Shown here in pieces: positions 3,957 through 28,700 of a stretch of DNA of 64,000 nt. The translations under genes and the position numbers were made by a program. Where the stretch lies: the NCBI GenBank assembly GCA_946497955.1, contig CAMMMH010000002.1:22496-86495 (forward strand), written 5' to 3'. The DNA comes from an uncultured Mycoplasmatota bacterium (GTDB lineage: Bacteria; Bacillota_I; Bacilli_A; RF39; UBA660). Numbering within the stretch: position 1 is the first letter of the stretch; each line of letters starts with the position of its first letter. The notes beneath the pieces are model-generated. The model was not told the DNA's origin, did not search any database, and saw only the letters and a program-made list of their open reading frames with translations.

Positions 3957-3959
3957 ATT

Positions 3960-4721: not shown

Positions 4722-4724
4722 TAT

Positions 4725-6816: not shown

Positions 6817-6838
6817 TATTATAAATAATTTTTTTATT

Positions 6839-7435: not shown

Positions 7436-7438
7436 ATT

Positions 7439-7804
7439 ATGTTTTATAAAGAAGATTATATTAGTCTTGATACAGCTAAATTATTAAAAGAAAAAGGATT
7501 TGATGAATATTGTAAATCTTTTTATAAAGAAAAAGAATGTACTAATAAAGAGACTTTTTATCCAAAAGTTACATTATATGAGGTTCAAAAATGGATTCAA
7601 AAAAAATATCAATGTCATATTCAAATAATTGCTGAATTTTATACTAATGGAATAAATTATCTTTTTCAAGTTCTATTTTATGATGAAAATGATTATGATT
7701 GTATATCTGATAAATCATCAGGATTATATGGAGATAATGGAGAATATAAAACTTATGAAGAATGTTTAGATGCTGCTATTAGAGAAGCACTTAAACGTAT
7801 ATAA
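7439..7804 (+). CDS. hypothetical protein (121 aa)
   Basis: ATG lies 4 nt after the previous stop. Confidence 0.55.
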   Translation: MFYKEDYISLDTAKLLKEKGFDEYCKSFYKEKECTNKETFYPKVTLYEVQKWIQKKYQCHIQIIAEFYTNGINYLFQVLFYDENDYDCISDKSSGLYGDNGEYKTYEECLDAAIREALKRI

Positions 7805-7832
7805 ATTTAATAATCATTTAATTAAACAAATT

Positions 7833-9128: not shown

Positions 9129-12100
9129 TTAATCAGGATTAATTTCATCAGCAATAGTTTTAGTAATTTTCATATTAAGAGATTTCTCGTTAATTCTATA
9201 ATAACTATTATTTTCTGTCATACTAGATAATCTATCAATAACTCTATAAAGAGGAATATTTCGTTTAAGTAATACCCAACCTTTATTTTCTCCAGCATAA
9301 AGACCTGTTTTATAAGTAGGATCAAAATCTTCATCTAATAACCATTGAGCTAGAAAAGTTATTCCTTTAAATAAATCTTCAGGTCCATTAGTAGCAGCAA
9401 TAGGACTAGACCATAATGTAGAACCTTCACTTATAAGACCCCAAGGAGTATATATTTGAGATTCTAAAAGAAGTCTATCTGAAAGATAAATAGCAGTAGC
9501 TATTAATTCACTTTCTTTTTCATCATCATCATCTGTCATAGCATATATTGCAATACCCATTAACATAGCACTAACAACTCCGTATAAGTCTCCTAATGCT
9601 CTTTTACAAGCATTACGTTCCCATTGAGGCATTAAATTCCAATTAGTTCTTATATTAATAATAACATCTAAAGCTGATTTAATAGTTTCTTGTACAGATA
9701 CTATAGCTTTACTTTCTCCAGAATCAACTCGTTTATCAATTCTATCTTTAATCCCAACAAATTCTCTTCCAAGTAATCTAACAATAGCTGCATAAGAACC
9801 AATTTCTACAGTATTAGTTTGCTCATTATAATATCCTTTCCAACGAAATCTTTTCATTATACCAGGATATAAATGTTTATGATATTGCATCACAAGACCA
9901 CCCCACCAACTAAATTCTATACGAGCAGCTCCAATTTTATCATAAACTCCATGAATTTTCTTATTAAGAGCAATAGTTGTATTTCTTAATTCTATTAACA
10001 TTTCTTCAGTTAGTTCACTATTATCAGCAATTTTAATATTACCATCTTTAGTAAGTTCTAATTGATTAATAGCTATAGGTTTCTTATTCCATTTTTCTTT
10101 TGCTTTTTTAATTGCTTCATTTCTCTTAGTAATATATTCTTGTATTTGTTGTTTACTACAATGAGCTCTAAGAAATTCTTCAACAATATTGCGTTTAAAA
10201 GTATCATATTTATATTCTTCTTGTTTATCAGTTTTAATTTGTCGTTTTAATTCTCTTAAATCATCTAATAATAATTCATCATCTTTTATAATAGAAACAA
10301 GAGTATCATATTCAAGTTTCCAAATATAATTTTGGAATGTTCCACATCTTTTAGTTCCATCAACATCATCAAATATACGACTAGTTTTTAATACAGCAAA
10401 TAAAACTGAATTTTGCATGAAATGTTCACCACCAGATTGCAAACTATATAAAGCATTTCTAACTCTTCTAGTATATTCTCCAGCAGTTTCACCATCTATT
10501 CTTTCTGTCATTGCAGTAAAATCTACTACATTAAAATATTTAGTAAGAGCTACAGCAAAATTGTTACTTTTTTCTTTATAAGCATCTGTTATCATAGATA
10601 TTGAATTAGTTAAATACATATTAACTGCATCTAATAAATCTTTTTTATTAAAATTATCTCCAGCAAATGCTTCTCCCATAATATTAACAAAACCAGTTCC
10701 TACGTTAGCAATACCTCCAGTAACATTAAATATCATATATTTTGCAGATGTAATATTTCTAGCTAAATCAGCGTATTTATTTAATTTATTCTTTTCTTTA
10801 AATTGATCAAAAATAATACGACGAGTAAATGCTTCTACAGATTCTAAACTTCTATTTTGTTTAGTTGTGATAAATCTTTCATTAGTATCTGTACTTCCTT
10901 TTCTATCATTTATTAATCTTCCAGTTAATTTACTTACTTTATAGGCTTCATTATTTCTTAAATCTTCTTGTAATAAGTAAAGCCAATTTTTAGCTTTATT
11001 TTTAGCATTATTTATAACTTGTTGTTGAATAGCTTCTGCAAATATAGTTCTATAATCAGAACTCATTAAAGCATTATCTATCTCAAGATTTTTACGTCTA
11101 ATTTCATCATTACGCTCTTTAACATCTTTAAGATATTTTTGATATTCTTCTACAGTTTCATCTTCTCCTTTACTTCTTATTGGTTCTAATTTTTGATAAC
11201 CTTTTCCTTTTAATAAATGAAGCATATCATTTTCAACTAATTCATCATTAGTATAATCAATTTTATCTCCCCATTTATCATCAGAATCATTTCTATATTC
11301 TAATCCAACAGAGCCTAATGCTTGTTTAATAAACCATTTAGTATCAGTTTCAATTTTACGTTTTCTAGGAATAAAACCTTGATCTATAAATGAATTATTA
11401 GGATTATATTTTGAAAAGAAATTCATTGTTTCTTGAAGCAATTCTCTAACTTGTTTTTCTTTTTCACTTAATTTAGTAAAATTATTATATTCTCCAGTAG
11501 ACATGTTATAATTTGTTCCATATTGCCTATAATTAGGATTAACATATTCAGCTTTTACATCTTTTTCTTGATTTTCATTAGTTGGCACATAACTATAAGT
11601 TTCTTTTAAAGTTCCATTAGGATTAACTTTCATAGTTGTCCAAATACGAAGAGGTTCCCATTTATGCTTATATGGATTATAAACATGATTTAATTTAAAC
11701 CATTCATTAAAAGTTCCATTTTCAGTAGCTTTATGTAAAGCATCATAATAATATTCTGTAGGAACAAAATCTAAATTTTCTTCTATAAGTTTTCTAGCTT
11801 CTGTTTTTTCTAAATTAATATAAGTATCATCTTTTGGCACAATATATCCATAAATATCACTATTAGGAATATAATTACCTTTTTCATCAAGTTGAATTTC
11901 TCCAGATGCATCTATTTGTACAAATATATCTATGAAAGTATCAAAATTTTTAGTACCTTTAAGATTAGTTAAAGCCCAAACATATTCTTCATTAAATGCT
12001 GCATCGTTATTTTTAAATTCAACATTATTTTTAAATTTTTCTCTAAGTTCTTTAGATTTTCTTTTACCTTTAATAGATTTTAAAGCTCTATAAGATTCTG

Positions 12101-15100
12101 CTAGTTCTTCTCTTTCTTTTTCTGTTAATTTACTAAATATATCTTTAGCATGAATTCTTCCATCATCTCCAATACATTTACTAAGTAATTCATTAATTTT
12201 ACCAATAATTTTTAATCTTCTACGATTAATTCCTTCTTCATTTTCACTAGGATCTCTAAGCATTCTATAGAAACTATCTTCTAATATAGGCAATCCAGAA
12301 GGAATATCTTTAATTAATATTGCTTCTCCAGCATTACTATCATAACTAAAATCATATTTATGTTTAGTAAGATTTCGTATAGTTTCTAAATCTTTATCGC
12401 TAAGTTTACGAGGATCAATATTTCCAAAATCATCATAAGCCATAGCTTTATCAATAATATTTCTTATTTTTTTACTTTTAACATTATCTTTATCTTTTAA
12501 AAGATCAAATGCTTTTTCTATGGCTTTATTAGCAGTTTCATCTAATATATAATAAGAATTATCTTTAACCCATTCATATGCTTCTCTATATGATTCATCT
12601 TTTAATCTTTCATCTAAAGGCATATTAGGATTATTTTTTTCAAATCTATTTATAATTTTAAGATTATTTTCTAATGCTTCTTTAAATCCATATGCTTCAG
12701 TCCAATCAAAATATTCTTTATCTAGTTTACGTTTTTCTTCTATAAAAGTTCTTAATTGATTAGCTCTAAATATTTCTTCTTGACTTTTTAATGTTGAAGT
12801 ATCTCTATATTCAGAAATTAATTGATTTATTTTCTTATTTATTTCTTTTCTTCTATCTCTTTCTTCTTTAGTAAGAATACCAGTAGGTCTATTATCATTA
12901 TATAATTCATGAATAAGTTTCATATATTCAACATATTCATTAGGAGCATTATTAATAACAATTCTTATAAGTTCATTCTTTCTTTTATAGTAATCACTTA
13001 TAACAATTTGTTCAGTATTTTTTGCATACCATTCATCACGTTTAAGTTTAGCTTTTATATATTCTATACTATCTTCTCCATAAGTGTCTCTAGCTTCTTT
13101 AACAGTATTTATTAAATTATCTCTATCTATTATATATTTATCGCTATAAGATCTAATTAATCTTCCTTTGCTATCAATAATATTTTTCCAATCAAAATCT
13201 CCTATTGCATTTAATATAGCATCTAACTTATCAAGAAATTGTTGTTTTCTTTTTGGTGCATCTATCATCATAGCTCGAGTCATAATATTATTAACTATTT
13301 TAACAATAACTTGAATTTGTTTATTGCTAATCATGGCGGTATCTCCAATCCAAGATTCCCACCAACCAGAATCACCAAAAGTATCATTTAAATTAACAAT
13401 TCCTATACGAATATTAGGATTAGTAGAATATTCATTAGCTATATAATTATTAAACATTTTTTTAAATCCTTGTTTAACAATTTCATTATTTCTAATTTTA
13501 TTAATACTATTTCTAATTCGTTTAATATAATTTGTAGTATCACTATCTATACCTTCAAAAGGTAAACTCATAATTTCTCCAAAAGCATTTCCAAAAGTAA
13601 TAGAATCTAATAATATTTTAATAATAGGTTCAACTTCTTCTTTATGTTCTCTTAATATATTATATAATTTATCGTCTCCTAAACTATATTCTTCGTCATC
13701 TATTTTATAATGTTTAATCGCATTATCTAATATATTACTATTAAGTTCCATATATTGTGCCATAATAGAATATATACTTTTACGATTATTAATAAGATCT
13801 TTAGAATTATGTTCGTTTATTTGTTTCATATTAATAATACGTATTGCTCTAATAGCATTAGGATCGCCTTGTCTTTCAGCTCTTTTTAAATAAGTTATCA
13901 TGCTATTTGCAATTCTATCAACACCATCAAGATTTTCATTTTGTTTTACATAAAAATCAGTAATATCAGAAGTAATAGCAGCCATATCTGGAGCAATTTC
14001 AGAATTTCTTTCTTCAGTTTGTTGTTCAACTTGCTCTCTAACATTTTCATTTGTTAATATTTCAACTTTATAATAAGTAGAAAATGCAGCATAACCTTCA
14101 AAAGCATTTTTATAAGCATCTCTATATTCAATAGGTATTTCTGTTATATCTAATTCATTTCTACTATTAATAGAAGCTGCAAAATTTTTAGGTTGTTTTA
14201 CTTTAGTAATACTAACAGTAATTATATCATCTCCTATTGGAATATTTTGAATAACACTAACTCCTTTAGGTATTTGACTATTTATAAATTTAGAATTAGA
14301 ACGAACAACAATATATGCACCTCTCTCCTCTACAGGGGATTTAATATAATCATTTATATGACTTATAAATTTATTTACTTCATCTTTTTCAACATTTTTT
14401 CCATTATTTAATATTCTTCTAAATTCATCTTTATTTTCAAGTATTTCTCTTATACGAGAAAATTTAAATTTAGGTATAATATGTTCTTGATAATCATTTT
14501 CTATTTCTTGAATTCCAGAACCATCTTTTAATATTTCTTTAGCTGTAGTATTTAAATCTATAGCAGCATTAATTAAATTATTATAAAATTCAATATTTGG
14601 ATATTGATTATTAGTAGGATTAACACTAAAATCTCCAGTTTCATTTCTTTCTAATAAGTTTAAAGGAATAAGATATATTCCGTTATTAGTTTTTCTAATT
14701 TTATATAAAACTGTTTTACGTTTATTTTTTCCAATAGTTTTATTAATTCTAATATATTCTTGAGAACTATTAGGATCACTAACGTTTATTTCAGTTAATA
14801 AATCTTTTGCTCTTTCTTCAAAAGGAATAAATACTAAACTTTTACCTTGACTATAAGTGTCAAATTTATATGCTAAATTAGATATTCCATATTTAGTTTC
14901 TGATTTACCTAATCTAATTGTTTTAACATATTCACTATGACTACGAATAAATTTATCAATAAATGAAGTAGTAGCATTATCTATAGGATTATTATAAAAT
15001 TGAAAAAGTTCTCTAATTACAGGTATAATATTCATACCCATATCTTCAATATTTTTATACATTGCATTGTTAGTAATAATTTTACTAAGTGCTCCTTTTT

Positions 15101-18100
15101 TAAATTTAAAGCCTTCAACTGCAAATGCATATTTAATTAAATCAACAGTAGCTAATCTAATAATAGGACTAGTATTAAAGAAACTAGCATTAAAAGCTCT
15201 ATATACTTCTTCTATATTATCAATACTATCATTAAATCTAATACTATCTTGTGAATATCCTTTATTTTTATATTCATATTGATTATCTATATTAACATTT
15301 AAATATTCAAATATTCCTTTTTCATCAGTAAGATTAGTTTGTATCCATAATACTTTTTGTGCAGGAGTTAATTTATTAAATTCTTCTAATTCATCTTTAT
15401 TTGGATCATATATATCTTTTATTGATAGACTAATACCTATAGATTTTTCATATCCATATATTCTAGATATTTCTTTATTCCAATAATTTTCATTATTTTT
15501 AGTATGTCTTAATGTTGCTTCATTATCAATATTAATCCAACCTTCTTGTGTAACAGTTAAAGCAGTATTAATATATGGTATAGAACTATATAAATGACTC
15601 ATCATATATTGTTTATATTCTTTATACTGTTCATCAGTAAATATAATTCCTAATTTTTGTTGAACAAAATTTGTAATATTAGTATATTTTTTATTTTCAG
15701 TAGGAAATAATACACTATTAATATCAATACTAGGTTCTGTTGCATATTTAAAGAAAGCAGCTAAATATGGATATTTACTTTTTTCAACTTTTATGCCTTC
15801 TTTTGAATTAAATCCGGGATAAATAGCTTCAAGGAGATTTATATTTCCAACCTTAACTACATCATAAACAGGATTACTTGTATTAAACCCATATTCAGAT
15901 ATATTATCTTTAATCATTCTAGTAGCTCTAATAGTTTGTTTTGCTCCAAATCTATCAGGATTACTACATCTCATAATTTTTTCTAAACTTTTAGTAGTAT
16001 TATATATTTTTTCAAAAGTAAGAGCCATAGCTATATCAAAAGCAGCATCTCTAATTTGTTTATCTTCTTTAGATAATTCAGAATTATTAATTATTTCGAC
16101 CGATTCTAAGCGATTTTTTAGCTTGTTTACGTCTAAGCTAAATGTTATATTTTGGATTGGATTATTATTGTCTATTTCAGCCCCAAATAGCTCTTTAACG
16201 GCTTGCTGAAATCTTTTATCGGTATTTAATAATAACATTACAGTATTATAATCTGTATAATCAGTAATAGGATTACCACCAAGAGTAAAACCAGCATTAG
16301 TGGCAATTCGTTTAATAGCATTTTTAATAACATTACCTCCGCTATTTATATAAATACTATTTGTTTCATTATTTACTTCATTAATTATACTAATAGAAGG
16401 TTGCATTAAAAACGCAATAGCAGTTCTATAATCTATACCAGTATCTATAAGTGTTTTAAATGTTCCAAAAGTAAATTCGTTTTCATTATATATAGCTCCT
16501 TCTTTAATAGCATCAAGAATGTGAGCAGTTGTTTCAGAACTATATACTGTAATAAGTCTGCCAACAGCATTTCTATTATTATTACTATTTGCTAATTTAT
16601 AATGTTTAATTCTAAGTTTTACAGTGTCTTCTTTTTTTGCAGAAAGTTTTCCATTTTTATCTAATGGAATAACATCTCCTGTTTTTGTTTTTGGATCATA
16701 TAATGTATATGCAGATGTAATAGTATCATAATCATATATAAAATTTCCATCATTATCTTTAAGAGTTAAATCATATTCTACTATAATTTCATGACCTTTA
16801 CCTAATTCACTTTCTACATAATTATTAACACTATTAAATGTATCTCGAGTAACAGAAAATGCTTTTAATGAAGCACCGCTCATAGCATTTTCCATAAAAT
16901 CGATTTGATCAAAAAGATTATATGTACTACGACTTAATGAACTAGCTCCTCTAGCACTATTCATTTCTTTCATAGCATCAGTAATATCATCAAAATTACT
17001 TCTAGAATAATTTTCTTCTCTACTATTTTTATGAGCCATGATTTTAATCATGGCATCAAGAATATTATTATTTCTAACTTTACGAGGAAGTTTTTCAATA
17101 TCATCAAGGTTTTTAAATTCATTAAAAGTTAAAAGACCAGCTTCTTTTCCAATTTTATTTATTTCTGCATAATCTTTATTTTTAATAGCAATATTTAATC
17201 TTTTCTTTAACTCTTTATATTTATTAGGTTTTAAATCGTCATCTATATCAGAAGGAATTTTATTTTCAATATTTTCTCTAATATAATATTTATATTTAGC
17301 AATATCGCTTCCAACAGATTGTTCAGTCCATTTTTTAACATCAATTATATCTCCGTTTTTATTTCTTACAGCATATAATTCATGACATATAGCATAAACT
17401 GAATCGACATCAAAGTCTGCACCTGTTTGAGTAACCCATTCGTCAGGAAGCATAATTGTACTTCCATATACATCATCAAGGAACCCTACAACTTTTATAA
17501 TACTAACAGATTGTTTACCTTCTGTAGGAATACGATAAGCAATTTGAATATCAAGTCCTTCTTTTTCGAGTTGTTCTACAGGATAATTTTTAGGTATAAG
17601 ATTACTCCATCTAGGAATTAAAACTTCAGCATATGCTTCTTGTTTTACAGTATATTTACTTTTTTCTTCATTAGATAAATTATTATATATATCTTCTTCA
17701 ATAATTTCTCCATTTTCATTATTAGTAATAATTGCAGGGTGATATTTAAGTTCTCTTAATTTTCCATTACTATCTAAAACTTTCATACCATGACCAACTT
17801 GAGTAACCTGAGCAGCGTGCCAGCCAGGAAGTTTTTGTCTAGTAATATTACTATTAAATATGGCTTGAGCGATACTTTCAAGTTTACTACTAACATTATT
17901 CATATAATTTGGCATAATAGGATTGCCTAAATTATCTGGAGTAATATAATCGATAAAATTAGAATCAAGTCCTAATCTTTGAGCTTCATGTCTAGCTCTA
18001 CTATAAAAATCTGTAAAATCAAGAGTTTCTTTATCTCCATCTATATTAGAAATACTTCCATTTTTATTAATTTTCCAACCCATATTAAAAATCATTTTTT

Positions 18101-21100
18101 TAAAATCATCTTTAATATTAGCACAGTAATTATCAAAAAATTGCTTAATATTATCAGTTAATTCTTTATCTTTTTTATCAGCATTATCTATAATTTTTTT
18201 CATAATTTGAATACCTGCCTTATTTGTTTCATCTTTCATATGTTCAGGTACTTCTTGCTGCTTATATAAAAATCTATAATAGTAATCTTCAATAGCAGCA
18301 TAATTATTAGCTATAATGTCTGACTCAAAATTAGGATTTATGTCTCCATTATTATCCCAAAAAGTAAGAACATTTTTCTTAGCAGCTTTAGAAGTTTCAG
18401 CAGTATTAACTTGACCAATATCATATTTTATCATTATATCATATAATTGTTTAAGCTGAGTACCTTCTAATAATTCAGGTATAAGAACAAATTCTGCATT
18501 TTTAATTTGTCTAGGATAATAAGTTTTTGTAGCAGTATCAAATTGTTTATCAAAATAAAAGTTCTTTTGAATTTGAATACGAGCATTAATTTTAGCTAAA
18601 TCTAAATCTTCAATAGTTTTTTCTCCTTTACGAATTGCATAAATTTGAGAAAGAATATCTTGATATTGATTTAAAGTTCCATCAGCATATCTACGTCTAA
18701 TAAATTCTTCTAAAGTAATATAAGATTGTGCATCATTAGTTTTAGTATCACTTTTAAATCCACTATATATTTGTTGAGCAATTTTAGTTGCTTGCTCTTC
18801 ACTCATTTTTTCTTTAAGAATATCGAATATTTCTTTTCTAATTCTATCAGCATATTTACTTGGACCAACAGTATTATTAATAGTTATTGCTCTAAAACCA
18901 TTTCTAGCATTTTGAGATGTATAATAATCATTTGTTCCTTCTACAGGGGAATATGCACGAAGAAATTCCTGAATATTTACTCCAGCAACAGTAATAGGTT
19001 GTACTTTTCCATTTCTATCAATAACATCTTTTATTTTTTGACTTAAAGAATCATTAATATCAAATCCAGCATAAGATTTTCCAGCAGCTTGTACTTCTTT
19101 AGCTCGTTTTAAAAAATCTTGAGCATCTTTATAAAATTTTACATCTCCTTCAAATATATCATCAAAAGACATTGATATATTAGCATAATTAAGCATACAA
19201 TCAAAAATTTGTTCATATGATATAGTTTTAGGAGCAGATTCTATAAGTTTTCTATATTGTTGACTTCTACGAATAGTTTCTTTATTAAAACCTTTTATCC
19301 ATTGTTCTGTAATATTGTCTAAAACAGAATTAATTTCATTAGTTAAATTTAATACTAATCTGTCATTTTCTTCTCGTACAAGATTATTATTCATATTAAT
19401 AGTTCCAGACTTTTCAGTAAGCTGTATTAGACCTTCGTTAAATTCCCTGTAGAGGGAGAGTTGTTGTTCAATTAGTTCTTGTACATTAACTCCATCAGTA
19501 TTAAATAGTTTTCTAAAACTAAAGAAATTACCAGATAATCTTTTAACTTCTACTTTTTTACCATTTATTATTTTTTCTTCAGTTTTAATTAAAGTTTTAT
19601 TATAATGCGCTCTATCAATAAGTCCTACAGTATCTTTTCTTAATGTCCAATTACCTTTAGAATCTTTTATAAATAGATTATTTAATTGGTCAATAAAAGT
19701 ATTAAGTTCATTTAAAAGATTTTGATGTATTCCTAAAAATATAGGAACAGATTTATTTATAGTTGTTTCTATTTCTTCTTTTTCAATTCCTTCTTGAGTA
19801 ATTATTTCAGAAATTTCATCATAAAAATTATCACTCATATTATTTTCATTATTTCCAGTAATATCTTCTATAGAAATATTATATAAAATATTATTAGTTT
19901 CTCCTTGAACTTTATCTCCTTTTATCCAAATAATATCAGTTTCTCCTTTAGACGAATAAATTATAGGAATAGATACAGTTCCATCTTCATTATTGACACT
20001 ATACATACTATTATATTGTATATTATCAATATTACCATTTAATAAATTATATATATCTTTAGCAGTCCATATATTCTTTTTATTAACTATAGAACTATCT
20101 AAAATATATTCATTTCTCCAATCTACATATTTATCTTTATTTTCTGTTTTAATACCAAATTTTTCAATTTTACTTTTAACAGAATTTATATATTTAACTA
20201 CTGAAGAATAAACTGGACTAAGAATATTTGTTGAATTAAGTTTAGGAGCTTGAACAATAAAATTCTTAGGAGCATCAGAAGGAGTACGCATAAAATATCC
20301 AGCATATTTTTCTGATAAAATAATCGAAGATTCTCCTATATTTTCTCCAATAGAAATAGGAGTTAAATAAGTATATAAATTAGTTAAAAAATAATCTCCT
20401 TTTGACATTCTGTTATACAGTACAGCTTTACTATTATCACTATCTTTAATACCATTAAATAGACTTATTTGGATTATTTTGCGAGCATTTGGATTTACTT
20501 TTACATTTCCCATATTATCTCGCATAAATAAACCTTCAGAAACATAATGTCCTTTATTATCTTTTACACCCCAAAATAAAGGAGTATATTTATATTGTTC
20601 TCCTTTAGTAATTTCTTCCAATAATCTTTGTAAACCTGCATTAGAATCTTTTTTATTGCCATAAGCAATTTGTCTCATTATATTAGTAATATAATTGTTA
20701 TTAATAATATCAGATCCTAAATTTCCTTCTGCATTAACACTATTGAGATCATTTTTAACAGCCATATAATTAACTAACTTTTTAGCTATTTTAATTATAG
20801 GACTATTAAGTCTATCATATTTTACTTCAGACATATCCCTAATAGGAGCTTCTTTAGTAAATGATTTATAAGGATCAGATTGTTCAAAATGAAGTTTATC
20901 TTGAGACCATTCATAATATGCTGTTTTATAAGCTTGATCTGCCTTATTATATTCTTCTATTGTAGTTTCTATTTTATCAAGAAATTCATTTAAATTATCA
21001 ATAATAGAATCTATATTATCTTTTACTGTATTAGTATTATTATATAAATATCCTTTTAATGATACTATAGTAAGTTTTGGATAATATTTTTTTAATATAT

Positions 21101-22649
21101 CATAAATAGTATTTTCAATATCAGATTTAATTTTATTAAATTCTTCTATATCTTTTTGTTTAGTACGTTGTTTAGAAAAAAACTCATTTTTTAAATTTTT
21201 ATATCTTGTTTTTAAATAGTTAAGTTTATCAATATCAGTAGTTGTAAAAACATCAGTCATAGTAGAACGAGTAGTATTTAACATATTATATACTACATGA
21301 CTTAAAGCATCAGCAGATTTATTTGATTGAATAAAATCTATTCCGTTTTCAGGTAATACTATCATTGTTTTAATAATCTTAGGATTATTAAGTTGTGTAC
21401 ATAAATAATTAGCAAATATAGGATCTTCAACTGCTCTATCTGCAATAGCAATAAAACCATATAATTCTGGAACTTGCTTACTCATATTAATAATACTATC
21501 AATAAAATCATTAACAGAGTTAAAATTTCCATATTGAACTAATTGAGAAATTACAAAATTAGCTCCCATTGTAGTACGAACTCCTACTTCATTATTAGTA
21601 TCATAAGTATAATTTTTACTTCCTAATTCAGAAGGAGCACTAAGTTTATAAAGAGTATTAAAATATATTTTTAAGTCAGCAGCAACAGCTTTATCGAAAC
21701 TAGACCAAATTTTATCTTCCCAACTTTTAGACATTTCGTCTCTAGACTCTGCATTAGGATTAGTATAATCATTTTCATCTTGATAATTTTCATTAATAAG
21801 TTTATCACTTTCTAAAATATTTTCAAATTCTCTAACGACAGATACAAGTTTTGGGCTATCAAATACTTTAGAAAACCAATCATTTGGATTACTTTTACTT
21901 TGTTCAACTAAATTTAAATAATTTTTTTGTATAGTATTTCCATATTTATTAATTAATCTATATGCCGTATTATATCTTTTTCTTTTAGCTTCAATAAGTT
22001 GTTCTTTTAATTCAATTAATAATTTATTATATTCTTTAATATCTATTGTATTTTTAGTAGTATTTAATTGTTTTATTTTATCCTTTATATCTAAATATTC
22101 ATTATTAGCATTTTTGAAATCTTCTAATTCTTCTCTATTCTTAATAGTAGTATCAGCAGAAATAATTTTATATATAGGAATAGCACATTCTTTCATAAAA
22201 TTATTTTCTATATCTAAAAGTGTTTGATTAATAATTTTTTTTCTATCTAGTTTAATATTACCATCTTTACTTTTTCTTAATTTAGTATAATAATTAATAT
22301 TAACCAATGTTGCAGTATAATCAATAGCAATATATTTAGCATTTACGCTACTAAAACCTTGAAGAGATTCTGCTTGTGCTTTAGCAGCACTTTCAATAAC
22401 ACTTTTATGTTTTTCTTTAAAATATTTACGTAAAATACTTCTAACAGTATTTTGCGGATTATCAGCAATAGATTTAGTAGAATCAAATTTATCATTTTGC
22501 TTACAATAATCAAGAAATTCTTGACTATTAATGTATCCGGCTAATACTGTTGCTTTACGTTTATTAGCACCAGCTACATACTCGACAGTTTTTCTTAATT
22601 TTCCATCAACATCTCCAACAATGTTAAAACCAAATTCAAAACATTCCAT
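9129..22649 (-). CDS. giant virion protein (~4506 aa) containing a putative virion-packaged DNA-dependent RNA polymerase (double-psi beta-barrel type) and C-terminal hydrophobic segments
   Basis: Uninterrupted 13.5-kb ORF. The first ATG is at 22649 (MECFEF...); the track start at 22688 is a TTG. GADFDVDS (nt 17403-17417) resembles the DxDxD metal-binding loop (NADFDGD) of two-barrel RNAPs. crAss-like phages are known to encode such an RNAP in very large virion proteins. Hydrophobic helices lie at about nt 10680-10745 and 9541-9595. Confidence 0.75.
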   Translation of the reverse strand: MECFEFGFNIVGDVDGKLRKTVEYVAGANKRKATVLAGYINSQEFLDYCKQNDKFDSTKSIADNPQNTVRSILRKYFKEKHKSVIESAAKAQAESLQGFSSVNAKYIAIDYTATLVNINYYTKLRKSKDGNIKLDRKKIINQTLLDIENNFMKECAIPIYKIISADTTIKNREELEDFKNANNEYLDIKDKIKQLNTTKNTIDIKEYNKLLIELKEQLIEAKRKRYNTAYRLINKYGNTIQKNYLNLVEQSKSNPNDWFSKVFDSPKLVSVVREFENILESDKLINENYQDENDYTNPNAESRDEMSKSWEDKIWSSFDKAVAADLKIYFNTLYKLSAPSELGSKNYTYDTNNEVGVRTTMGANFVISQLVQYGNFNSVNDFIDSIINMSKQVPELYGFIAIADRAVEDPIFANYLCTQLNNPKIIKTMIVLPENGIDFIQSNKSADALSHVVYNMLNTTRSTMTDVFTTTDIDKLNYLKTRYKNLKNEFFSKQRTKQKDIEEFNKIKSDIENTIYDILKKYYPKLTIVSLKGYLYNNTNTVKDNIDSIIDNLNEFLDKIETTIEEYNKADQAYKTAYYEWSQDKLHFEQSDPYKSFTKEAPIRDMSEVKYDRLNSPIIKIAKKLVNYMAVKNDLNSVNAEGNLGSDIINNNYITNIMRQIAYGNKKDSNAGLQRLLEEITKGEQYKYTPLFWGVKDNKGHYVSEGLFMRDNMGNVKVNPNARKIIQISLFNGIKDSDNSKAVLYNRMSKGDYFLTNLYTYLTPISIGENIGESSIILSEKYAGYFMRTPSDAPKNFIVQAPKLNSTNILSPVYSSVVKYINSVKSKIEKFGIKTENKDKYVDWRNEYILDSSIVNKKNIWTAKDIYNLLNGNIDNIQYNSMYSVNNEDGTVSIPIIYSSKGETDIIWIKGDKVQGETNNILYNISIEDITGNNENNMSDNFYDEISEIITQEGIEKEEIETTINKSVPIFLGIHQNLLNELNTFIDQLNNLFIKDSKGNWTLRKDTVGLIDRAHYNKTLIKTEEKIINGKKVEVKRLSGNFFSFRKLFNTDGVNVQELIEQQLSLYREFNEGLIQLTEKSGTINMNNNLVREENDRLVLNLTNEINSVLDNITEQWIKGFNKETIRRSQQYRKLIESAPKTISYEQIFDCMLNYANISMSFDDIFEGDVKFYKDAQDFLKRAKEVQAAGKSYAGFDINDSLSQKIKDVIDRNGKVQPITVAGVNIQEFLRAYSPVEGTNDYYTSQNARNGFRAITINNTVGPSKYADRIRKEIFDILKEKMSEEQATKIAQQIYSGFKSDTKTNDAQSYITLEEFIRRRYADGTLNQYQDILSQIYAIRKGEKTIEDLDLAKINARIQIQKNFYFDKQFDTATKTYYPRQIKNAEFVLIPELLEGTQLKQLYDIMIKYDIGQVNTAETSKAAKKNVLTFWDNNGDINPNFESDIIANNYAAIEDYYYRFLYKQQEVPEHMKDETNKAGIQIMKKIIDNADKKDKELTDNIKQFFDNYCANIKDDFKKMIFNMGWKINKNGSISNIDGDKETLDFTDFYSRARHEAQRLGLDSNFIDYITPDNLGNPIMPNYMNNVSSKLESIAQAIFNSNITRQKLPGWHAAQVTQVGHGMKVLDSNGKLRELKYHPAIITNNENGEIIEEDIYNNLSNEEKSKYTVKQEAYAEVLIPRWSNLIPKNYPVEQLEKEGLDIQIAYRIPTEGKQSVSIIKVVGFLDDVYGSTIMLPDEWVTQTGADFDVDSVYAICHELYAVRNKNGDIIDVKKWTEQSVGSDIAKYKYYIRENIENKIPSDIDDDLKPNKYKELKKRLNIAIKNKDYAEINKIGKEAGLLTFNEFKNLDDIEKLPRKVRNNNILDAMIKIMAHKNSREENYSRSNFDDITDAMKEMNSARGASSLSRSTYNLFDQIDFMENAMSGASLKAFSVTRDTFNSVNNYVESELGKGHEIIVEYDLTLKDNDGNFIYDYDTITSAYTLYDPKTKTGDVIPLDKNGKLSAKKEDTVKLRIKHYKLANSNNNRNAVGRLITVYSSETTAHILDAIKEGAIYNENEFTFGTFKTLIDTGIDYRTAIAFLMQPSISIINEVNNETNSIYINSGGNVIKNAIKRIATNAGFTLGGNPITDYTDYNTVMLLLNTDKRFQQAVKELFGAEIDNNNPIQNITFSLDVNKLKNRLESVEIINNSELSKEDKQIRDAAFDIAMALTFEKIYNTTKSLEKIMRCSNPDRFGAKQTIRATRMIKDNISEYGFNTSNPVYDVVKVGNINLLEAIYPGFNSKEGIKVEKSKYPYLAAFFKYATEPSIDINSVLFPTENKKYTNITNFVQQKLGIIFTDEQYKEYKQYMMSHLYSSIPYINTALTVTQEGWINIDNEATLRHTKNNENYWNKEISRIYGYEKSIGISLSIKDIYDPNKDELEEFNKLTPAQKVLWIQTNLTDEKGIFEYLNVNIDNQYEYKNKGYSQDSIRFNDSIDNIEEVYRAFNASFFNTSPIIRLATVDLIKYAFAVEGFKFKKGALSKIITNNAMYKNIEDMGMNIIPVIRELFQFYNNPIDNATTSFIDKFIRSHSEYVKTIRLGKSETKYGISNLAYKFDTYSQGKSLVFIPFEERAKDLLTEINVSDPNSSQEYIRINKTIGKNKRKTVLYKIRKTNNGIYLIPLNLLERNETGDFSVNPTNNQYPNIEFYNNLINAAIDLNTTAKEILKDGSGIQEIENDYQEHIIPKFKFSRIREILENKDEFRRILNNGKNVEKDEVNKFISHINDYIKSPVEERGAYIVVRSNSKFINSQIPKGVSVIQNIPIGDDIITVSITKVKQPKNFAASINSRNELDITEIPIEYRDAYKNAFEGYAAFSTYYKVEILTNENVREQVEQQTEERNSEIAPDMAAITSDITDFYVKQNENLDGVDRIANSMITYLKRAERQGDPNAIRAIRIINMKQINEHNSKDLINNRKSIYSIMAQYMELNSNILDNAIKHYKIDDEEYSLGDDKLYNILREHKEEVEPIIKILLDSITFGNAFGEIMSLPFEGIDSDTTNYIKRIRNSINKIRNNEIVKQGFKKMFNNYIANEYSTNPNIRIGIVNLNDTFGDSGWWESWIGDTAMISNKQIQVIVKIVNNIMTRAMMIDAPKRKQQFLDKLDAILNAIGDFDWKNIIDSKGRLIRSYSDKYIIDRDNLINTVKEARDTYGEDSIEYIKAKLKRDEWYAKNTEQIVISDYYKRKNELIRIVINNAPNEYVEYMKLIHELYNDNRPTGILTKEERDRRKEINKKINQLISEYRDTSTLKSQEEIFRANQLRTFIEEKRKLDKEYFDWTEAYGFKEALENNLKIINRFEKNNPNMPLDERLKDESYREAYEWVKDNSYYILDETANKAIEKAFDLLKDKDNVKSKKIRNIIDKAMAYDDFGNIDPRKLSDKDLETIRNLTKHKYDFSYDSNAGEAILIKDIPSGLPILEDSFYRMLRDPSENEEGINRRRLKIIGKINELLSKCIGDDGRIHAKDIFSKLTEKEREELAESYRALKSIKGKRKSKELREKFKNNVEFKNNDAAFNEEYVWALTNLKGTKNFDTFIDIFVQIDASGEIQLDEKGNYIPNSDIYGYIVPKDDTYINLEKTEARKLIEENLDFVPTEYYYDALHKATENGTFNEWFKLNHVYNPYKHKWEPLRIWTTMKVNPNGTLKETYSYVPTNENQEKDVKAEYVNPNYRQYGTNYNMSTGEYNNFTKLSEKEKQVRELLQETMNFFSKYNPNNSFIDQGFIPRKRKIETDTKWFIKQALGSVGLEYRNDSDDKWGDKIDYTNDELVENDMLHLLKGKGYQKLEPIRSKGEDETVEEYQKYLKDVKERNDEIRRKNLEIDNALMSSDYRTIFAEAIQQQVINNAKNKAKNWLYLLQEDLRNNEAYKVSKLTGRLINDRKGSTDTNERFITTKQNRSLESVEAFTRRIIFDQFKEKNKLNKYADLARNITSAKYMIFNVTGGIANVGTGFVNIMGEAFAGDNFNKKDLLDAVNMYLTNSISMITDAYKEKSNNFAVALTKYFNVVDFTAMTERIDGETAGEYTRRVRNALYSLQSGGEHFMQNSVLFAVLKTSRIFDDVDGTKRCGTFQNYIWKLEYDTLVSIIKDDELLLDDLRELKRQIKTDKQEEYKYDTFKRNIVEEFLRAHCSKQQIQEYITKRNEAIKKAKEKWNKKPIAINQLELTKDGNIKIADNSELTEEMLIELRNTTIALNKKIHGVYDKIGAARIEFSWWGGLVMQYHKHLYPGIMKRFRWKGYYNEQTNTVEIGSYAAIVRLLGREFVGIKDRIDKRVDSGESKAIVSVQETIKSALDVIINIRTNWNLMPQWERNACKRALGDLYGVVSAMLMGIAIYAMTDDDDEKESELIATAIYLSDRLLLESQIYTPWGLISEGSTLWSSPIAATNGPEDLFKGITFLAQWLLDEDFDPTYKTGLYAGENKGWVLLKRNIPLYRVIDRLSSMTENNSYYRINEKSLNMKITKTIADEINPD
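14326..14339 (-). repeat. GC-rich motif copy (- strand TCCCCTGTAGAGGA, preceded by ATTAAA)
   Basis: Inside the giant ORF, encoding KSPVEE. Confidence 0.8.
18936..18950 (-). repeat. GC-rich motif copy, one mismatch (- strand TCCCCTGTAGAAGGA)
   Basis: Inside the giant ORF, encoding YSPVEG. Confidence 0.65.
19443..19457 (+). repeat. GC-rich motif copy TTCCCTGTAGAGGGA (preceded by GTTAAA)
   Basis: Inside the giant ORF in antisense, encoding LSLYREF, a different frame from the other antisense copies. Confidence 0.8.
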
Positions 22650-22692
22650 AACTTTATTAATATTTATATGTATAAAAATAACCGCCAAATAA

Positions 22693-22741: not shown

Positions 22742-25700
22742 TTATCGGCAAGCGTATTTTAATTCGCCATTTTGAAGCATTTTAGCTATAATCGGCTTAT
22801 CTTGCTCGCTAAACATATTCAAATAGTCTGCCATGTTAGTGATACGAGTAACGCCGAAAGTTTCAGCAGTAGCATTACCGTCATTAGCTACATGGTCTAA
22901 TATATATTCTTCAGCAGAAGTAGTAGAAGAAAGTCTTTCATCATCTGTATCTAATTCTATATCTAATAAATCATCATCTTCTTTATTATTAGTATCATTA
23001 GTATCATTAAATTCATCATTAAAAGCTTCTGGATTATCTTCATCAAATTCTTGTGTTTCATCAATATCTGTATCTTGCTTAATTTCTTCAGTAATATTTT
23101 CTTCATTTTTAGTAATATCTTCTCCAGCATCATCTTTAATATTATCTTTAGCTTTTCTATTTGTTTCAGTAATATTTATATTATTATTTATATTTCCTAA
23201 AATAAGATATTGTTTTGCAAATATAGTATTATTTTTGACATTATTACTACCTTTTCCAAATAATTTTAATAATAAGTCAATTATTTTTTGCCATATAGAT
23301 TTAGTTTCATTAGAAATACCTTCAACGATTACTTCTTCTTTATCATACCTAGTATTATTAAGAAAATTCATTAAAGTAGGTTGAGTTAATGTTTCAACTA
23401 ACCATTCTTCAGCAAATATTCTTCTACGTTCTTCTTTAGTCATTTCAGCATATTGTGCATTTTTATCTGCTGTAAATTTAGTAAAATATTCAGTAGGATT
23501 AAATTTATTACTTTCTATCCATTGCCTTACAATAACAGCGTTTTTATATTCTGCACTATCTTCATTGGCAGTTTTAATTATATTATCAATAGCTTCTATT
23601 GTAGCATAATAAGTATCAAATAAATCATCAACTAATCCTTCTCTATCAAATAAATTTTGTTTACTTATTTTATCATGTAGATTTTCATGTATTAATAATC
23701 TTTTTAAAGTAAAAGGAGAACTATTAGCATAACTAGCACCTGCATTTCCAAAGAAAATTTTTCCATTTCTAAATACGGCATATTCTTTAGTTAATTTATT
23801 ATCATATCCATATTCTTTAGGAATTAAAGAAATACCATAAATATTAGTTCCACTTAGAAATTCTATTTCATCTTGAGGAATAGTAGCTTGTTTTAATAAA
23901 TCTTTTGAAGAATTAAATTTTTCTTTAGTAGCAGTTTTAATAGTATCAGCGATAGATTGATATTCTCCCTCTACAGGGGATAAATTAGATTTAGGTTTTT
24001 CAAGTACAGAAACATCGACATATAATGAATTAATTTTATCAGTATTACTAAAATATCCTCCATATTCATTTCTTCCTTGAGTAGTATTAAAAGCGTTTTC
24101 TCGTAAAACAAAATCTCCAAAATTTTCATAAACAGTTTTAATACCACCAAGTTCTATAACAAATTTTCCATTTTCTTTATACATATATGGATTATCTGAA
24201 GTATTATCTTTTTCAATATTATTTAAAGTATAAAATGTTCTATTATATACAACATTGTTAACTATTTCTTCAGCTATTTTTTCAATAAACTTTTTATTAA
24301 CAGAAATTGAACCAATAGTTTTATTAATATCTCCATTAGGTATATAACTTATTCCTGTTCCTAATTCATTACTATCTTTTTTAAATTTATTTATAACTAG
24401 TGCATATTTACCTAATTTTCCTCCAGTATTAAGAATAATTCTATTTCCATGATGAATAACACTATAACCTTGAAATATAGTAGGATTATTAATGCCAGGT
24501 CCATTAAATAAAGAAGATAGTTTTTTATCTACTTCTTCATAAGTATATCGTTTTTCTTGAAATCCTGTAATTATATCAATTATTTCATCTTTTAATTGTT
24601 TTTTAATTCCATCTTGTAATTTATTTGAACTAGTAAATAATACTAAAATAGGTGTATCTTCTCTACCTCCAATTAGCATTCCCATTGTTCCAATTTTAAA
24701 AGGAGCAAAAGTACTAATAGCTTTTTTAGTACCTTCATTTATAAGAACAGAATTATTTTGATCATTAATAACTCCTACTATTGGATTTTTATCAAAAGTT
24801 AAACCTATTTCAGATATACCATGTTCTTCTTCATCAATTAATGTTTTAACATCACTAGAATCTCCTATTCCATAAGTACTAGATAAACCTGCAAATTTAG
24901 TAATTATTTTTTTATTAGTATCTAATGCAGTTTGTATTCGATGAGTATTTTTAAAATTATTAAAAGCATTTTTAATCCATTGATTATAACTTTCTCTATA
25001 TTCTATACCAAGTTGTGCTAAAGGATTATAAAATACAATATTTTCTAATTTATTAATAATAAATTTAACTTTTTGTCTATCAGTAACATATTTATCAACA
25101 ACTTTTTTAGTTCTTTCATCATATTTTTTAGGTAATATAATTACTTTATCTTCTAATGCTTTTTTAATAGCTGGGTGATTTATAAATTTATCTATTTCTT
25201 CATCAGTTATTGATTTACTACCAGGATTAATATTATAAACATGTTCTTTATGAATAATACTCCAAAGAACATCTTCTTGGTCTAATATAGCATCAAATAA
25301 TTCATCTGTATTAGAAGAATATCCATTTTCAGTTTTAGATATATTATAAGCTATTCCTCCACTATAAGGACTAATAAAAACTTTATAACCAGTATTAGTT
25401 TTATTAGGAAATACTACAGATATATATCCTATTTCTTTACCTTTTACTTTAAAACTAATAGAATTAATATTTCCATTTCTATCTGGTAAATATTCTACTT
25501 CTACATCTTCATTTCCAGTTAATCCTGCTATTAATCGCTCATATTCTTCAGTACGTTTAGTTATAGGAGAAATATGCATATAATTATCTAATTGCACTTC
25601 CTGTAATTTAGCATTAGTAATACTATTAAAAAATTCACTAGGATTATTTAAAATAGCTGTTAAACTTCTACGAGAAGTAAATACATATTTAGTATTAATA

Positions 25701-28700
25701 GGATTATTAATATAATCTTTCATATTCCATAAAATATGTAATGCTGTATCTATATCAATTCCTATTTCTTCATTATATATAATATCATTAAATAGCTTAT
25801 CAAGATTAATTATAACTTTTTGTCCAGCAGGAGTAGAAATTTGTTTATATTCTTTATATGCCTCTAGAAAATTATCAATAATACTATCTAATTCTGATTC
25901 AGGAATACTTCTAGTTATTGCTGCCATATCTTTAGTCATATCTTGCATAGTAGCAATACTATCAGCTAATTGTTTAAATTTTTCAGCTCTACTATCTTTT
26001 CTAGAAGATAAACGTCTACTAATTGTATTAAGAGCAACTCTTACACCTCGTCTAGCAGCGGCAGGAGCAAATCCAACACTTACTCCTTTTTCTTCAATAG
26101 CTTCAGTAACCATCGAAATAATTCGTTGTACTTCAGGACTAGATATATCTTTATCTAAAGCGTCATTAAATAAATTTCTAGATGTTCTAAAAATATCAAA
26201 AGTTATAGTACTAGCCATTCCAACAGCTTCTTCATCAACACTAATATTATATGCTTCTGCTAATTTTTCGGCATCTTTTTTTGCAGCTTCATCAAATTGT
26301 TCAATATCTTCTGGAGTAATAACTTTTAATAACTTTTCTTCTTCAGATAATTCAGAATTATTTTCATTATCCACATTTGTTTTTGTTAAATTCCCTGTAG
26401 AGGGAGATGATTCTTTATCACCAGAATTAGTTTCAGTATTTTCTGTAATATTAGATATAGTTTTTATATCTTTTTTTATAGTTTCAGCTTTACTTTCTGA
26501 TACTTTTTTTCCATCTACAATAACTTCTTTTTCTTCTTTTTCTCTTTTTTTACGTTTTTGTTGTTCTTCTCTAACTGTTGCTATAATACTTTTAGTATAT
26601 GCATCTGTACTATAATATCCGATTTTTAAAATATCTAATTCATTTTTAAGTTCTTCTACTTTTCCAGACATAATATCTTCAATAGCTTGCTCAAGATTAT
26701 CTTGTTTTATAATATAATCTTCAACTTTTTTAGCAGCATTATTAAGTCTATCTTGAGTTAATCGATCAACTTGTTGAGATATTTCATTAATTCTATCAAT
26801 ATAATCTTGTTGATTTTTTGGTAATATATATTCTTGATAAGAATAAGCATCATCTAATCCTATTTGTTTATCAATAAATTCTTTAGTAGCATTTGTTATT
26901 TCTCCTTCTTCTTGAGAATTAATAATAGTTTCAATATCATTTAAAATATTATTAACTTCTGATGAAATATTTATTCCACTATTTTTAAATAAATTATTAA
27001 TTTGTTTCGTTATTTCTGTACTAAATAAATTATTATTTAAAAGATTAATTAAACTTTTTCTTCTATTATTATAATCTTTTTCATATTGATTTTTTGCTTG
27101 TTCAGTAATATTATGATTACGATAATCTTCATACATACTTTGCTCCATTCTATCAATTTGAGCAAGTTGTTTTTTAACATAATCTTTTAATGCTTTTCTT
27201 TTATAATCATTTATTACATTAATATCAGAAGTATTAATTTCATTTATTTTATCCTTTAATAATTGTCTTCTTTCATCAATTTCTTTTAAATATAATTGTT
27301 CTCTAGTAATTTCTCTAGCTGCTATTCTAGCTACAGATTCGTTTTCAACTTCTGTATTTTTTAAAATATTATATAAAGCAGTTTCATAATTATTATATAT
27401 TTCTTTACTTTTTTCTAATAATTGTTGATCAAATTGTTTATTTCCAATAGTTAAATTAAGACCAGTTTCTTTAAAATATTGTTGAAATTCTGGACTAGAA
27501 ATATAATCTATAAGTAAATTATAATTACCAGCATCAATTGCACTCATAGTAATTGCAGAAACATAATCATTTACTAATTTTGCTTTTTTAATTTCTGCTT
27601 CTTCTGGAGTAAGAGATTTATTAAGTTCAACTCCATCTTCTTTAATAATTTTACCTGTAATAGGATCAGTTTTATATTCATCTGGGTCTTTTAAATCTTC
27701 TAGTAATTTCATACTATCAACAAATTTTTTATTGATAGCAGCTCTTCCTTTAATTTCTTCAGATCTAATTTTTTCTTCAGCTGTCATATTTAAAGCAAAA
27801 TCTTCATCACTTATTTTTCCTTTTTTATGTTTATATTTTGCTTCAGCTTTTCTATATATATTACCTAATGCAGCTCCTCCTTTTTGAAAAGCTACTCCCC
27901 CAAGTACTCCCCAAAATGCTTGTTCCCATATTGCAGAATCAGATAAATAATTACCAATAGTACGAGGAGTATAATTAGGGTCGAGTATCATTTCAGCAAC
28001 TTCTTTTCCTTTTTCAGTTTGAATACCTTGATATCCTTCTTCTATACCTTCTGACCATTCTATTCCTGAAATTACACTTAAAGGATTCTTAAAACCTTCT
28101 TTTATTAATTCAATTCTATTATTTAACCAAGAAGAATTTTTAGCATTTTTAGTAGCAGTTTCTTCAGCTTTTCCAACAAGGTTTTTAATTGCTTTTTTAT
28201 TTTCACTTCTTAATTTAGATGTTGGAGTTTTTTTAGTAACTCCTTTCCAAAGACTACCAATAGCTTTAAATTGAGCAATATCCATTAATAGCATTGCATA
28301 ATCATTAACAAATGTTTTATCAGCAGATTCTCCAGCAATATAATTAGCTATTTCATCTAAACTTTTATCTTTAAATTGAGGATTTCTTTCAATTAATTCA
28401 TCTAATTCTTCTCCAGACATAGATTGAAGTTTGGCTAAAGTATTATCTTTAACTTCATTCCAAACTCCTCTAGCTTCCATATAATTTTCAATAGTTCTAG
28501 AAACAAAAGCATTTCCTACTATTTCAGAACTAAGTTTAATAGTTTTATCTAATCTTTCTACAGAAGGTGCTTTGCCAGAAATAAATTTAGAAGTATTTCT
28601 AGCTAATTTTGCTATTCCTCTAGTAGTATAATTAGCAGCATTATTTATAGCTCTAATTTTACCTAAAAGACTAATTCCTTTAGTAACTCCTAAAGTTGGC

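Follow-up and report, generated by a model that had tools for sequence, protein, structure and literature searches.

A giant reading frame in an AT-rich crAss-like phage as the probable fusion of a virion RNA polymerase with its downstream cargo protein

What does a phage encode in one uninterrupted reading frame of some 13.5 kb, and is such a frame a single gene or an accident of assembly? The question is raised by a 64,000-nt window, by which we mean the whole stretch of DNA analysed here (positions 22,496 to 86,495 of contig CAMMMH010000002.1, assembly GCA_946497955.1, deposited under an uncultured Mycoplasmatota bacterium), and more precisely by a giant open reading frame (ORF) on its minus strand. 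A sequence-only reading of the window had taken this ORF for a putative virion RNA polymerase, marked by a DFDVD motif and ending in membrane-like helices. Our analysis leads to the view, which we hold with high confidence, that the giant is the virion RNA polymerase (vRNAP) of a crAss-like phage, made as one chain with a cargo protein for which other crAss-like phages have a gene of its own, directly downstream of that for the polymerase. It is a divergent protein, real and well supported, but ordinary for the crAss-like family.

The extent of the gene can be settled first. The minus-strand frame runs without a stop codon from 9129 to 22688, that is, for 4,519 codons counted from a TTG, in a window whose base composition leads one to expect a stop every ~10 codons, and the probability of such a run is ~1e-203. 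The conserved start is an ATG at 22649 (MECFEFG...), exactly where five diverse homologues also start, and the protein therefore has 4,506 amino acids (aa). The single ORF of 4,506 codons described earlier is borne out both by the ORF call and by this conserved ATG.

9129..22649, minus strand: whole coding sequence of the giant, 4,506 aa, ~522 kDa, pI 5.9, stop codon at 9129-9131.

Searched with tblastn, the two halves of the protein together cover ~80% of crAssphage KP06_gp44 in colinear fashion and at ~30% identity, the best single pieces reaching E-values (E) of 2e-141 and 2e-164. KP06_gp44 (4,070 aa) is annotated as a 'putative RNAP catalytic subunit fused to unknown RNAP subunit', RNAP standing for RNA polymerase, and by sequence the giant is its orthologue, a vRNAP fused to a downstream cargo protein of the gp65/gp49 type. 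Proteins of this kind had already been annotated, which the sequence-only reading did not recognise. Both genes close a late block and converge on genes of nucleotide metabolism, and both products contain the same fusion, a DFDVD motif and a C-terminal module in which a hydrophobic helix is followed by DDD; on the other hand, their identity is low and the window protein is ~440 aa longer. Similar giants are found in crAss002, cr3_1 (4,245 aa), ctbg_1 and others. The nearest GenBank record is 58-59% identical to the giant, and among its metagenomic relatives 120 listed cluster representatives of ~4,240-4,690 aa, coming from independent assemblies, share 59-97% identity with it. A 2023 review (PMC10136315) describes giant RNAPs, which reach ~6,000 aa, as a hallmark of the group.

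The assignment of the first part of the protein to an RNAP turns on the DFDVD motif. It sits within GADFDVDS (aa 1743-1750), about 1745 aa into the chain and exactly where it had been placed before, and BLASTP lays it on the active site of a characterised enzyme, the vRNAP gp66 of phage phi14:2. The alignment joins aa 1109-1755 of the giant to residues 820-1371 of gp66 (E 1e-21) and sets TGADFDVDSVY on TGSDFDIDKMY, residue for residue; in gp66, mutagenesis has established that every Asp of 1361-DFDID-1365 is needed for RNA synthesis (bioRxiv 10.1101/2020.03.07.982082). The three Asp of DFDVD are invariant in 44/44 giants and in a four-way alignment, and the conservation of the protein reaches its maximum at aa 1701-1750. 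A profile built from the 44 giants extends the relationship well beyond the motif, recovering gp66 (E 1.1e-24) and crAss001 gp50 (E 9.8e-31) in colinear pieces from aa ~948 to aa ~2650. The elements of the polymerase region that can be mapped in this way are as follows.

17403..17417, minus strand: DFDVD, predicted Mg2+-binding catalytic loop (aa 1745-1749), homologous to gp66 1361-DFDID-1365.
15753..19352, minus strand: RNAP core as modelled (aa 1100-2299), the most conserved part of the protein.
18714..18737, minus strand: NDAQSYIT motif (aa 1305-1312), preceding the beta-rich block that is taken for the first barrel.
17508..17537, minus strand: YRIPTEGKQS motif (aa 1705-1714), part of the beta-rich block that is taken for the second barrel; its Y, R, P and S are invariant.
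16815..16916, minus strand: bridge-helix equivalent (aa ~1912-1945), a 34-residue predicted helix that aligns with gp66 1529-1559.
16443..16562, minus strand: trigger-loop equivalent (aa ~2030-2069), aligning with gp66 1598-1636.

Of the NDAQSYIT motif, the D, A and Q are invariant among the proteins of the window, crAssphage, crAss001 and phi14:2, and the trigger-loop equivalent contains five invariant residues (D2046, K2049, N2055, N2057 and T2060). The functions of the bridge-helix and trigger-loop equivalents are those that we infer from alignment with gp66. An AlphaFold2 model of aa 1100-2299, computed from a 47-sequence alignment, has a mean predicted local distance difference test score (pLDDT) of 79.5 and a predicted template modelling score (pTM) of 0.79. 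Compared with the PDB by means of Foldseek, this core model has a sole significant match, the phi14:2 vRNAP (6vr4_A; E 1.6e-29, probability 1.00, TMq 0.58 over 1,216 columns), and the insignificant tail of the search is made up mostly of RNAP beta-prime chains and small double-psi beta-barrel proteins. The beta-rich blocks of the core are read here, from the model, as two double-psi beta-barrels joined by a helical connector. It was on a two-barrel fold around DFDVD that the sequence-only reading had staked its proposal, and the core model does match 6VR4.

Sequence and model together thus support the view that aa ~1-2750 form a single-chain, two-barrel virion RNAP, the counterpart of phi14:2 gp66 and crAss001 gp50. 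The likeness to gp66 (PDB 6VR4) comprises the catalytic DFDxD, an alignable bridge helix and trigger loop, and a core fold that superposes, but gp66 is a separate protein of 2,180 aa to which identity is ~25%; moreover, the N-terminal ~950 aa of the giant have no significant alignment to it, and the cleft-blocking domain of gp66 was not located in the window protein. By function, the giant also recalls the vRNAP of coliphage N4 (gp50, ~3,500 aa), likewise a giant RNAP that is packed in the capsid, ejected through a narrow tail and put to the transcription of early genes. The folds are nevertheless unrelated, the N4 enzyme being a T7-like single-subunit polymerase and the giant a two-barrel one, and the 50 PDB fold matches listed for the core model include no RNAP chain of the N4/T7 single-subunit type.

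The region ahead of the core is conserved among the giants and only weakly alignable to gp66, from aa ~948 on. It also holds part of what sets the window protein apart from KP06_gp44 in length: an insertion of ~145 aa accounts for one third of the extra residues, and the others come from an extended N-terminus and from a number of small insertions within the core.

19350..22649, minus strand: N-terminal region before the polymerase core (aa 1-1100), conserved among giants at 20-40% column identity.
19770..20213, minus strand: lineage-variable insertion (aa ~813-960), without counterpart in crAssphage gp44 and in about half of the aligned giants.

Several points weigh against the polymerase assignment. 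Identity to the phi14:2 and crAss001 proteins, from which the packaging, ejection and activity of the giant are inferred without exception, is only ~25% in the core, and the core structure is a prediction. No function can be assigned to the first ~950 aa or to aa 2950-3900; the earlier statement that the flanks of the motif are of unknown function holds for these two stretches, but not for the last ~1,550 aa, which belong to the gp65/gp49 family and so have known relatives. Finally, whole-protein scans of Pfam and PHROGs and a single-sequence phmmer search of PDB sequences returned noise only, and phmmer with the core alone also missed 6VR4. In a local test, single-sequence phmmer proved blind to gp66, which BLASTP (E 1e-21), the 44-sequence profile (E 1e-24) and Foldseek (E 1.6e-29) all detect. 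Hence, the negative searches reflect sensitivity rather than absence, negative single-sequence HMMER searches are unreliable for such fast-evolving and compositionally biased proteins, and the assignment rests on BLASTP, profile and fold evidence.

The same empty searches (Pfam, PHROGs and single-sequence PDB) are what might be adduced for an artefact, be it a misassembly, the read-through of two genes or a chance DxDxD in a structural protein that is no polymerase. Such an explanation is vanishingly improbable and can be considered already refuted. It would have to accommodate the length of the frame without a stop, the 120 listed representatives from independent assemblies, the presence of the C-terminal module at the end of proteins of 4,000-5,200 aa in most of 150 listed 50%-identity representatives, the alignment of the motif with an experimentally validated catalytic site and the match of the fold to 6VR4.

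Some variation around this polymerase theme is apparent among its relatives. Positions 2 and 4 of the motif vary in the 44 giants (DYDVD, DMDGD, DNDGD, DKDGD, DHDGD, DMDND). A Gly at position 4 (DMDGD, DNDGD, DKDGD or DHDGD) is found in some of the giant homologues (P0213, P0218, P0225, P0231, P0238 and P0196) and is shared with cellular RNAPs (DFDGD), whereas most crAss-like enzymes, including the window giant, have V or I there, a choice linked in gp66 to an unusual inactive conformation of the loop. In another group of homologues (P0121-P0129, e.g. P0126, on a 193-kb contig), proteins of ~900-1,015 aa cover 77-90% of the 1,200-aa core at 33-35% identity, and some other crAss-like lineages seem to encode the polymerase core as a much shorter or split gene. 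One further protein (P0193, 984 aa) combines Tex-like Pfam domains (Tex_N, YqgF, S1, HHH) with a stretch 77% identical to 11% of the window core, and probably stems from a chimeric contig or gene call.

The genomic setting of the giant agrees with its proposed role. By sequence and gene order, the window belongs to a crAss-like phage of the family Intestiviridae and is syntenic, gene for gene, with crAssphage gp49-gp44. Its major capsid protein, the product of a 491-aa ORF (54410-55885), is recognised both by Pfam Crass_capsid (E 1.6e-40) and by the PHROG family of major head proteins (E 4e-154), and is 76% identical to the capsid protein of Carjivirus communis, the prototype crAssphage. The capsid gene is followed by those for the portal and the large terminase, both with PHROGs matches, and the terminase is 70-72% identical to its homologues in Diorhovirus intestinalis (Intestiviridae, Crudevirinae) and mouse crAssphage. 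The six genes from 39451 down to 9129 correspond, in the same order, to KP06_gp49, gp48, gp47, gp46, gp45 and gp44, and the plus-strand genes at 1327-8375 (dNMP kinase, ThyX, Gam-like, dUTPase) are also as in crAssphage. The gene of the giant is placed in the transcription and cargo block that comes after the structural genes of a Crassvirales genome. With DFDVD aligned on the catalytic DFDID, a fold that matches 6VR4 and this crAss-like block of structural and transcription genes around it, the virion-RNAP reading proves right.

The remaining part of the giant is related to a second cargo protein, known as gp65 in phi14:2 and gp49 in crAss001. In BLASTP searches, aa 4210-4467 match the last 240 aa of phi14:2 gp65 (E 1e-14; gp076 in GenBank), a protein of 1,421 aa whose gene lies directly downstream of that for the vRNAP, and aa 3958-4086 and 4188-4473 align with crAss001 gp49 (E 5e-12); the profile reaches both with greater confidence (E 3e-21 for gp65 and 9e-36 for gp49). 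In crAss001, gp50 (the RNAP, 2,412 aa) and gp49 (1,349 aa) are consecutive, separate genes, and their products have been identified as virion cargo proteins by mass spectrometry (PMC10172136). Homology covers the last ~550 aa, with a Gly-rich motif, an HG.Y(D/N) block, a hydrophobic helix and an acidic patch in common. The principal difference is that gp65 and gp49 are encoded by genes of their own. As in KP06_gp44 and most listed relatives, the module of the window is not a separate polypeptide of the gp65/gp49 type, but is fused in frame to the RNAP.

9132..13802, minus strand: part related to gp65 of phi14:2 and gp49 of crAss001 (aa ~2950-4506), as supported by BLASTP, the profile and the fold.
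13800..14552, minus strand: junction, or linker, of the fusion (aa ~2700-2950), where conservation is lowest (column identity 0.07-0.26).
9822..9962, minus strand: most conserved block of the C-terminal module (aa 4230-4276), KKIHGVYDK...WWGG.VMQYHKH.YPG..KR.R.

The junction is placed at aa 2700-2950 because three lines of sequence evidence coincide there: according to the profile of the 44 giants the gp66-like part stops at aa ~2650-2750, unfused gp49-like homologues from metagenomes begin at positions equivalent to window aa ~2908-2960, and conservation is at its minimum. The fusion itself is widespread. When the last 607 aa were compared with 1.84 billion representatives clustered at 50% identity, 1,083 proteins were recovered at E<=1e-3, of which 292 at E<=1e-30, and most of the best 150 are proteins of 4,000-5,200 aa that carry the module at their extreme C-terminus. 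Judging from these sequences, the fused giant is therefore a common architecture and not an oddity.

That the junction is both the conservation minimum and the equivalent of a gene boundary in phages with separate genes invites the idea that the 4,506-aa chain is a precursor from which a gp66-like RNAP and a protein of the gp65/gp49 type are released by a cut within the linker (~2700-2950) and perhaps at further sites. The neighbouring gene encodes a protein of 2,172 aa with a zincin motif, HENLH, and this zincin domain might be the cutter; Drobysheva et al. have likewise called fused forms 'likely cleaved'. On the other hand, no conserved cleavage motif was seen in the junction, our search of the literature found no proteomic data on any fused form, and the retention of the fusion in most of the 150 listed representatives fits a function as a single chain equally well, as for the N4 vRNAP. 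We regard processing as a tentative possibility, somewhat on the doubtful side, which would refine the proposal of a fused vRNAP and cargo protein and does not exclude it. A protease within the giant itself was considered and ruled out as far as zincins are concerned, since HExxH does not occur anywhere in its 4,506 aa, as opposed to phi14:2 gp65, which has an N-terminal HExxH at aa 245.

The last 607 aa (aa 3900-4506) were also modelled with AlphaFold2, which predicts an all-alpha structure (pLDDT 72.8, pTM 0.69). Foldseek retrieves from BFVD phi14:2 gp65 (S0A048) and many other crAss-like proteins, together with a weak match to an 'internal (core) protein' of a Providencia phage (E 4.5e-3, TMq 0.21). 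Against the PDB it gave no significant match (best E 0.12), and the generic helical transporters listed there were judged to be chance hits; a profile of the module likewise found nothing among PDB sequences. Kinship with the ejectosome core proteins gp15 and gp16 of T7 was rejected after hhalign comparisons with both turned out negative (probability ~0.1% each). The most conserved block of the module, aa 4230-4276, is predicted with low confidence in part (pLDDT <50 for residues 336-357 of the C-terminal model, against ~90 for their neighbours), and on the model it may be a partner-binding or conformationally switching element. A metal site or an M23-like arrangement at H4233-x3-D and H4257-K-H4259 of this block was discarded: where the window has YHKH, gp65/gp49 have FRKW or FRKY and so lack the HxH, and a helical structure is predicted. 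As of 2026, what the RNAP-associated proteins do was described as open (PMC13434306).

It is in this module that the sequence-only reading had seen its membrane-like helices, and here the two segments it singled out part ways. Both strings are present, at coordinates that were off by ~20 nt: the Gly-rich NVTGGIANVGTGFVNIMGEAFAG, reported at ~10680-10745, is aa 3975-3997 (nt 10659-10727), and VVSAMLMGIAIYAM, reported together with DDDDEKE at ~9541-9595, is aa 4358-4371 (nt 9537-9578), the acidic string itself lying at 9513-9533.

10659..10757, minus strand: conserved Gly-rich motif NITSAKYMIFNVTGGIANVGTGFVNIMGE.FAG (aa 3965-3997), conserved in sequence and not transmembrane-like.
9537..9599, minus strand: the only hydrophobic helix with a conserved position (aa 4351-4371); no 19-mer elsewhere in the protein is more hydrophobic.
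9513..9533, minus strand: acidic patch DDDDEKE (aa 4373-4379), in which DDD is 91-95% conserved.

Hydrophobicity was judged by the Kyte-Doolittle, Hessa (position-independent sum) and Eisenberg scales. The Gly-rich segment, of the pattern N.TSAKYM.FN.TGGIANV.TG..NI..E with nearly invariant N, G, N, G and E, has an Eisenberg <H> of 0.46 and a moment of 0.31, and is by its sequence a conserved polar motif and not a transmembrane segment. The membrane-like character claimed earlier does not hold for it, but finds some basis in aa 4351-4371, which is position-conserved and the most hydrophobic segment, though borderline on three scales: its Kyte-Doolittle mean over 19 residues (KD19) is 1.57, against a threshold of ~1.6, making it the sole segment of the protein at KD19 >=1.5, its Hessa sum is +4.6 kcal/mol, and its Eisenberg <H> and moment are 0.64 and 0.15. 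Among the 44 giants, whose chains span 4,200-5,000 aa, the equivalent helix is the most hydrophobic 19-mer in 40 by Kyte-Doolittle and in 43 by Hessa. In homologues it lies ~155 aa from the C-terminus, with KD19 values of up to 2.2, and its Hessa sum across the family has a median of +3.4 and is never <=0. Its residues vary while hydrophobicity is retained, R4350, just before it, is 98% conserved, and the flanks carry a net charge of +1.3 upstream and -4.7 downstream, the 15 downstream residues being negative in 44/44. The pattern of helix and flanks is kept in the unfused phi14:2 gp65 and crAss001 gp49.

Could this helix be a membrane anchor? The helix would insert in the host inner membrane as the last part of the chain comes out of the tail, with the basic flank in the cytoplasm and the DDDD flank in the periplasm (N-in/C-out), and the module would be part of an ejection channel or tether the RNAP at the site of DNA entry. 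The constancy of its position, the hydrophobicity kept under sequence change, the charged flanks and their retention in gp65 and gp49 all speak for such a role, to which may be added the weak fold matches to podovirus 'internal (core) proteins' (E 4.5e-3, TM 0.21) and the proposal in the literature that the N4 vRNAP remains anchored in the membrane. However, the hydrophobicity is marginal on all three scales and the unbroken apolar run is only ~17 residues long; AlphaFold places the segment inside a confident 30-residue helix (residues 443-472 of the C-terminal model) within a well-predicted helical bundle, as befits a buried core helix of a soluble domain; the comparison with T7 gp15/gp16 was negative and that with the PDB gave no significant fold match; and in the literature it is the smaller cargo proteins C1 and C2 to which the channel is attributed. 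Membrane insertion of aa 4351-4371 is thus possible but unproven, and we consider a translocon or anchor, in either form, unlikely.

Returning to the fused vRNAP and cargo protein, a plausible course of events can be outlined. What the present analysis contributes is the orthology, the alignment of the catalytic motif, a predicted fold and the architecture of the fusion with its junction; the steps of the mechanism are taken over from phi14:2, crAss001 and N4. The giant would be synthesised late and packed into the cargo zone of the capsid, and would then be extruded through the tail, partly unfolded, ahead of the DNA or with it. Once refolded in its Bacteroidota host, it would transcribe the early genes of the phage independently of the host RNAP, the three Asp of DFDVD being predicted to bind the catalytic Mg2+. 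If the linker is cut, one protease to consider is the zincin domain of the 2,172-aa neighbour, and the single hydrophobic helix of the C-terminal module, with its basic and then acidic flank, is a candidate contact with a membrane or a partner. Presence in the virion and translocation into the host are known only for the vRNAPs of phi14:2 and crAss001, and Mg2+-dependent, DNA-templated RNA synthesis, lost on Asp-to-Ala exchange, has been shown only for gp66.

Giant virion RNAPs are the means by which the most abundant phages of the human gut begin infection without the host polymerase, and the window adds to this picture a divergent and very AT-rich example from the Intestiviridae, leaving the picture itself unchanged. 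A small addition is the residue-level map of the fusion (core elements, junction at aa ~2700-2950 and C-terminal module). A second is the hydrophobic helix with its acidic patch, which is conserved in fused and unfused members and offers a testable handle on the role of the 'RNAP-associated' cargo proteins in ejection; it is the only lead we found that goes beyond current annotation in the literature consulted, and a modest one. Were the anchor interpretation true, a crAss-like vRNAP would be tethered at the site of DNA entry, in parallel to what has been proposed for N4.

The genes upstream of the giant complete the cargo block. The three ORFs of 2172, 889 and 721 aa, and the span of 9129-34107 that they occupy together with the giant, are as described in the sequence-only reading.

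22742..29260, minus strand: 2,172-aa gene, orthologue of KP06_gp45 ('RNAP-associated protein fused to zincin protease').
29264..31933, minus strand: 889-aa gene, orthologue of KP06_gp46.
31942..34107, minus strand: 721-aa gene, orthologue of KP06_gp47.
34236..34859, minus strand: 207-aa ORF, orthologue of crAssphage gp48 and cr3_1 gp20.

The orthology of the 2,172-aa protein rests on KP06_gp45 and cr3_1 gp23, and BLASTP found no significant similarity between it and phi14:2 gp67. Its only HExxH is the HENLH at aa 1858 (nt 23675-23689), near the C-terminus. HExxH motifs occur elsewhere in crAss001 gp47 (HEAFH at aa 2157) and phi14:2 gp65 (HEIMH at aa 245), and the zincin domain seems to have passed from one cargo protein to another in different lineages. 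The 889-aa and 721-aa products are, by their position in the block, probable virion cargo proteins. The 207-aa ORF carries in its N-terminal part the segment KAFLGAVIGLAANVIGGAISAN (nt 34773-34838), which, with a KD19 of 1.86, is the strongest transmembrane-like segment of the whole cargo block, above anything in the giant.

Some minor observations concern the window at large. Its G+C content is ~24% overall and 20-30% locally, and strand skew tracks the direction of transcription, with a change at ~8.4-9.1 kb, the point at which the two blocks of genes meet head-on. The whole window contains no tRNA gene and no Rfam family at gathering score, and a scan for terminators found nothing. Two antisense ORFs on the plus strand, one of 183 aa (22833-23384) within the 2,172-aa gene and one of 220 aa (54746-55408) within the capsid gene, are unexpectedly long given a stop expected every ~10 codons, and are likely spurious. 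Lastly, a 1,208-aa protein encoded on the minus strand at 46148-49774 carries a GDSL/SGNH lipase-acylhydrolase domain in its C-terminal part (aa 953-1198, Pfam E 7e-11), and is probably a tail fibre or spike, equipped with an esterase against a polysaccharide of the host surface.

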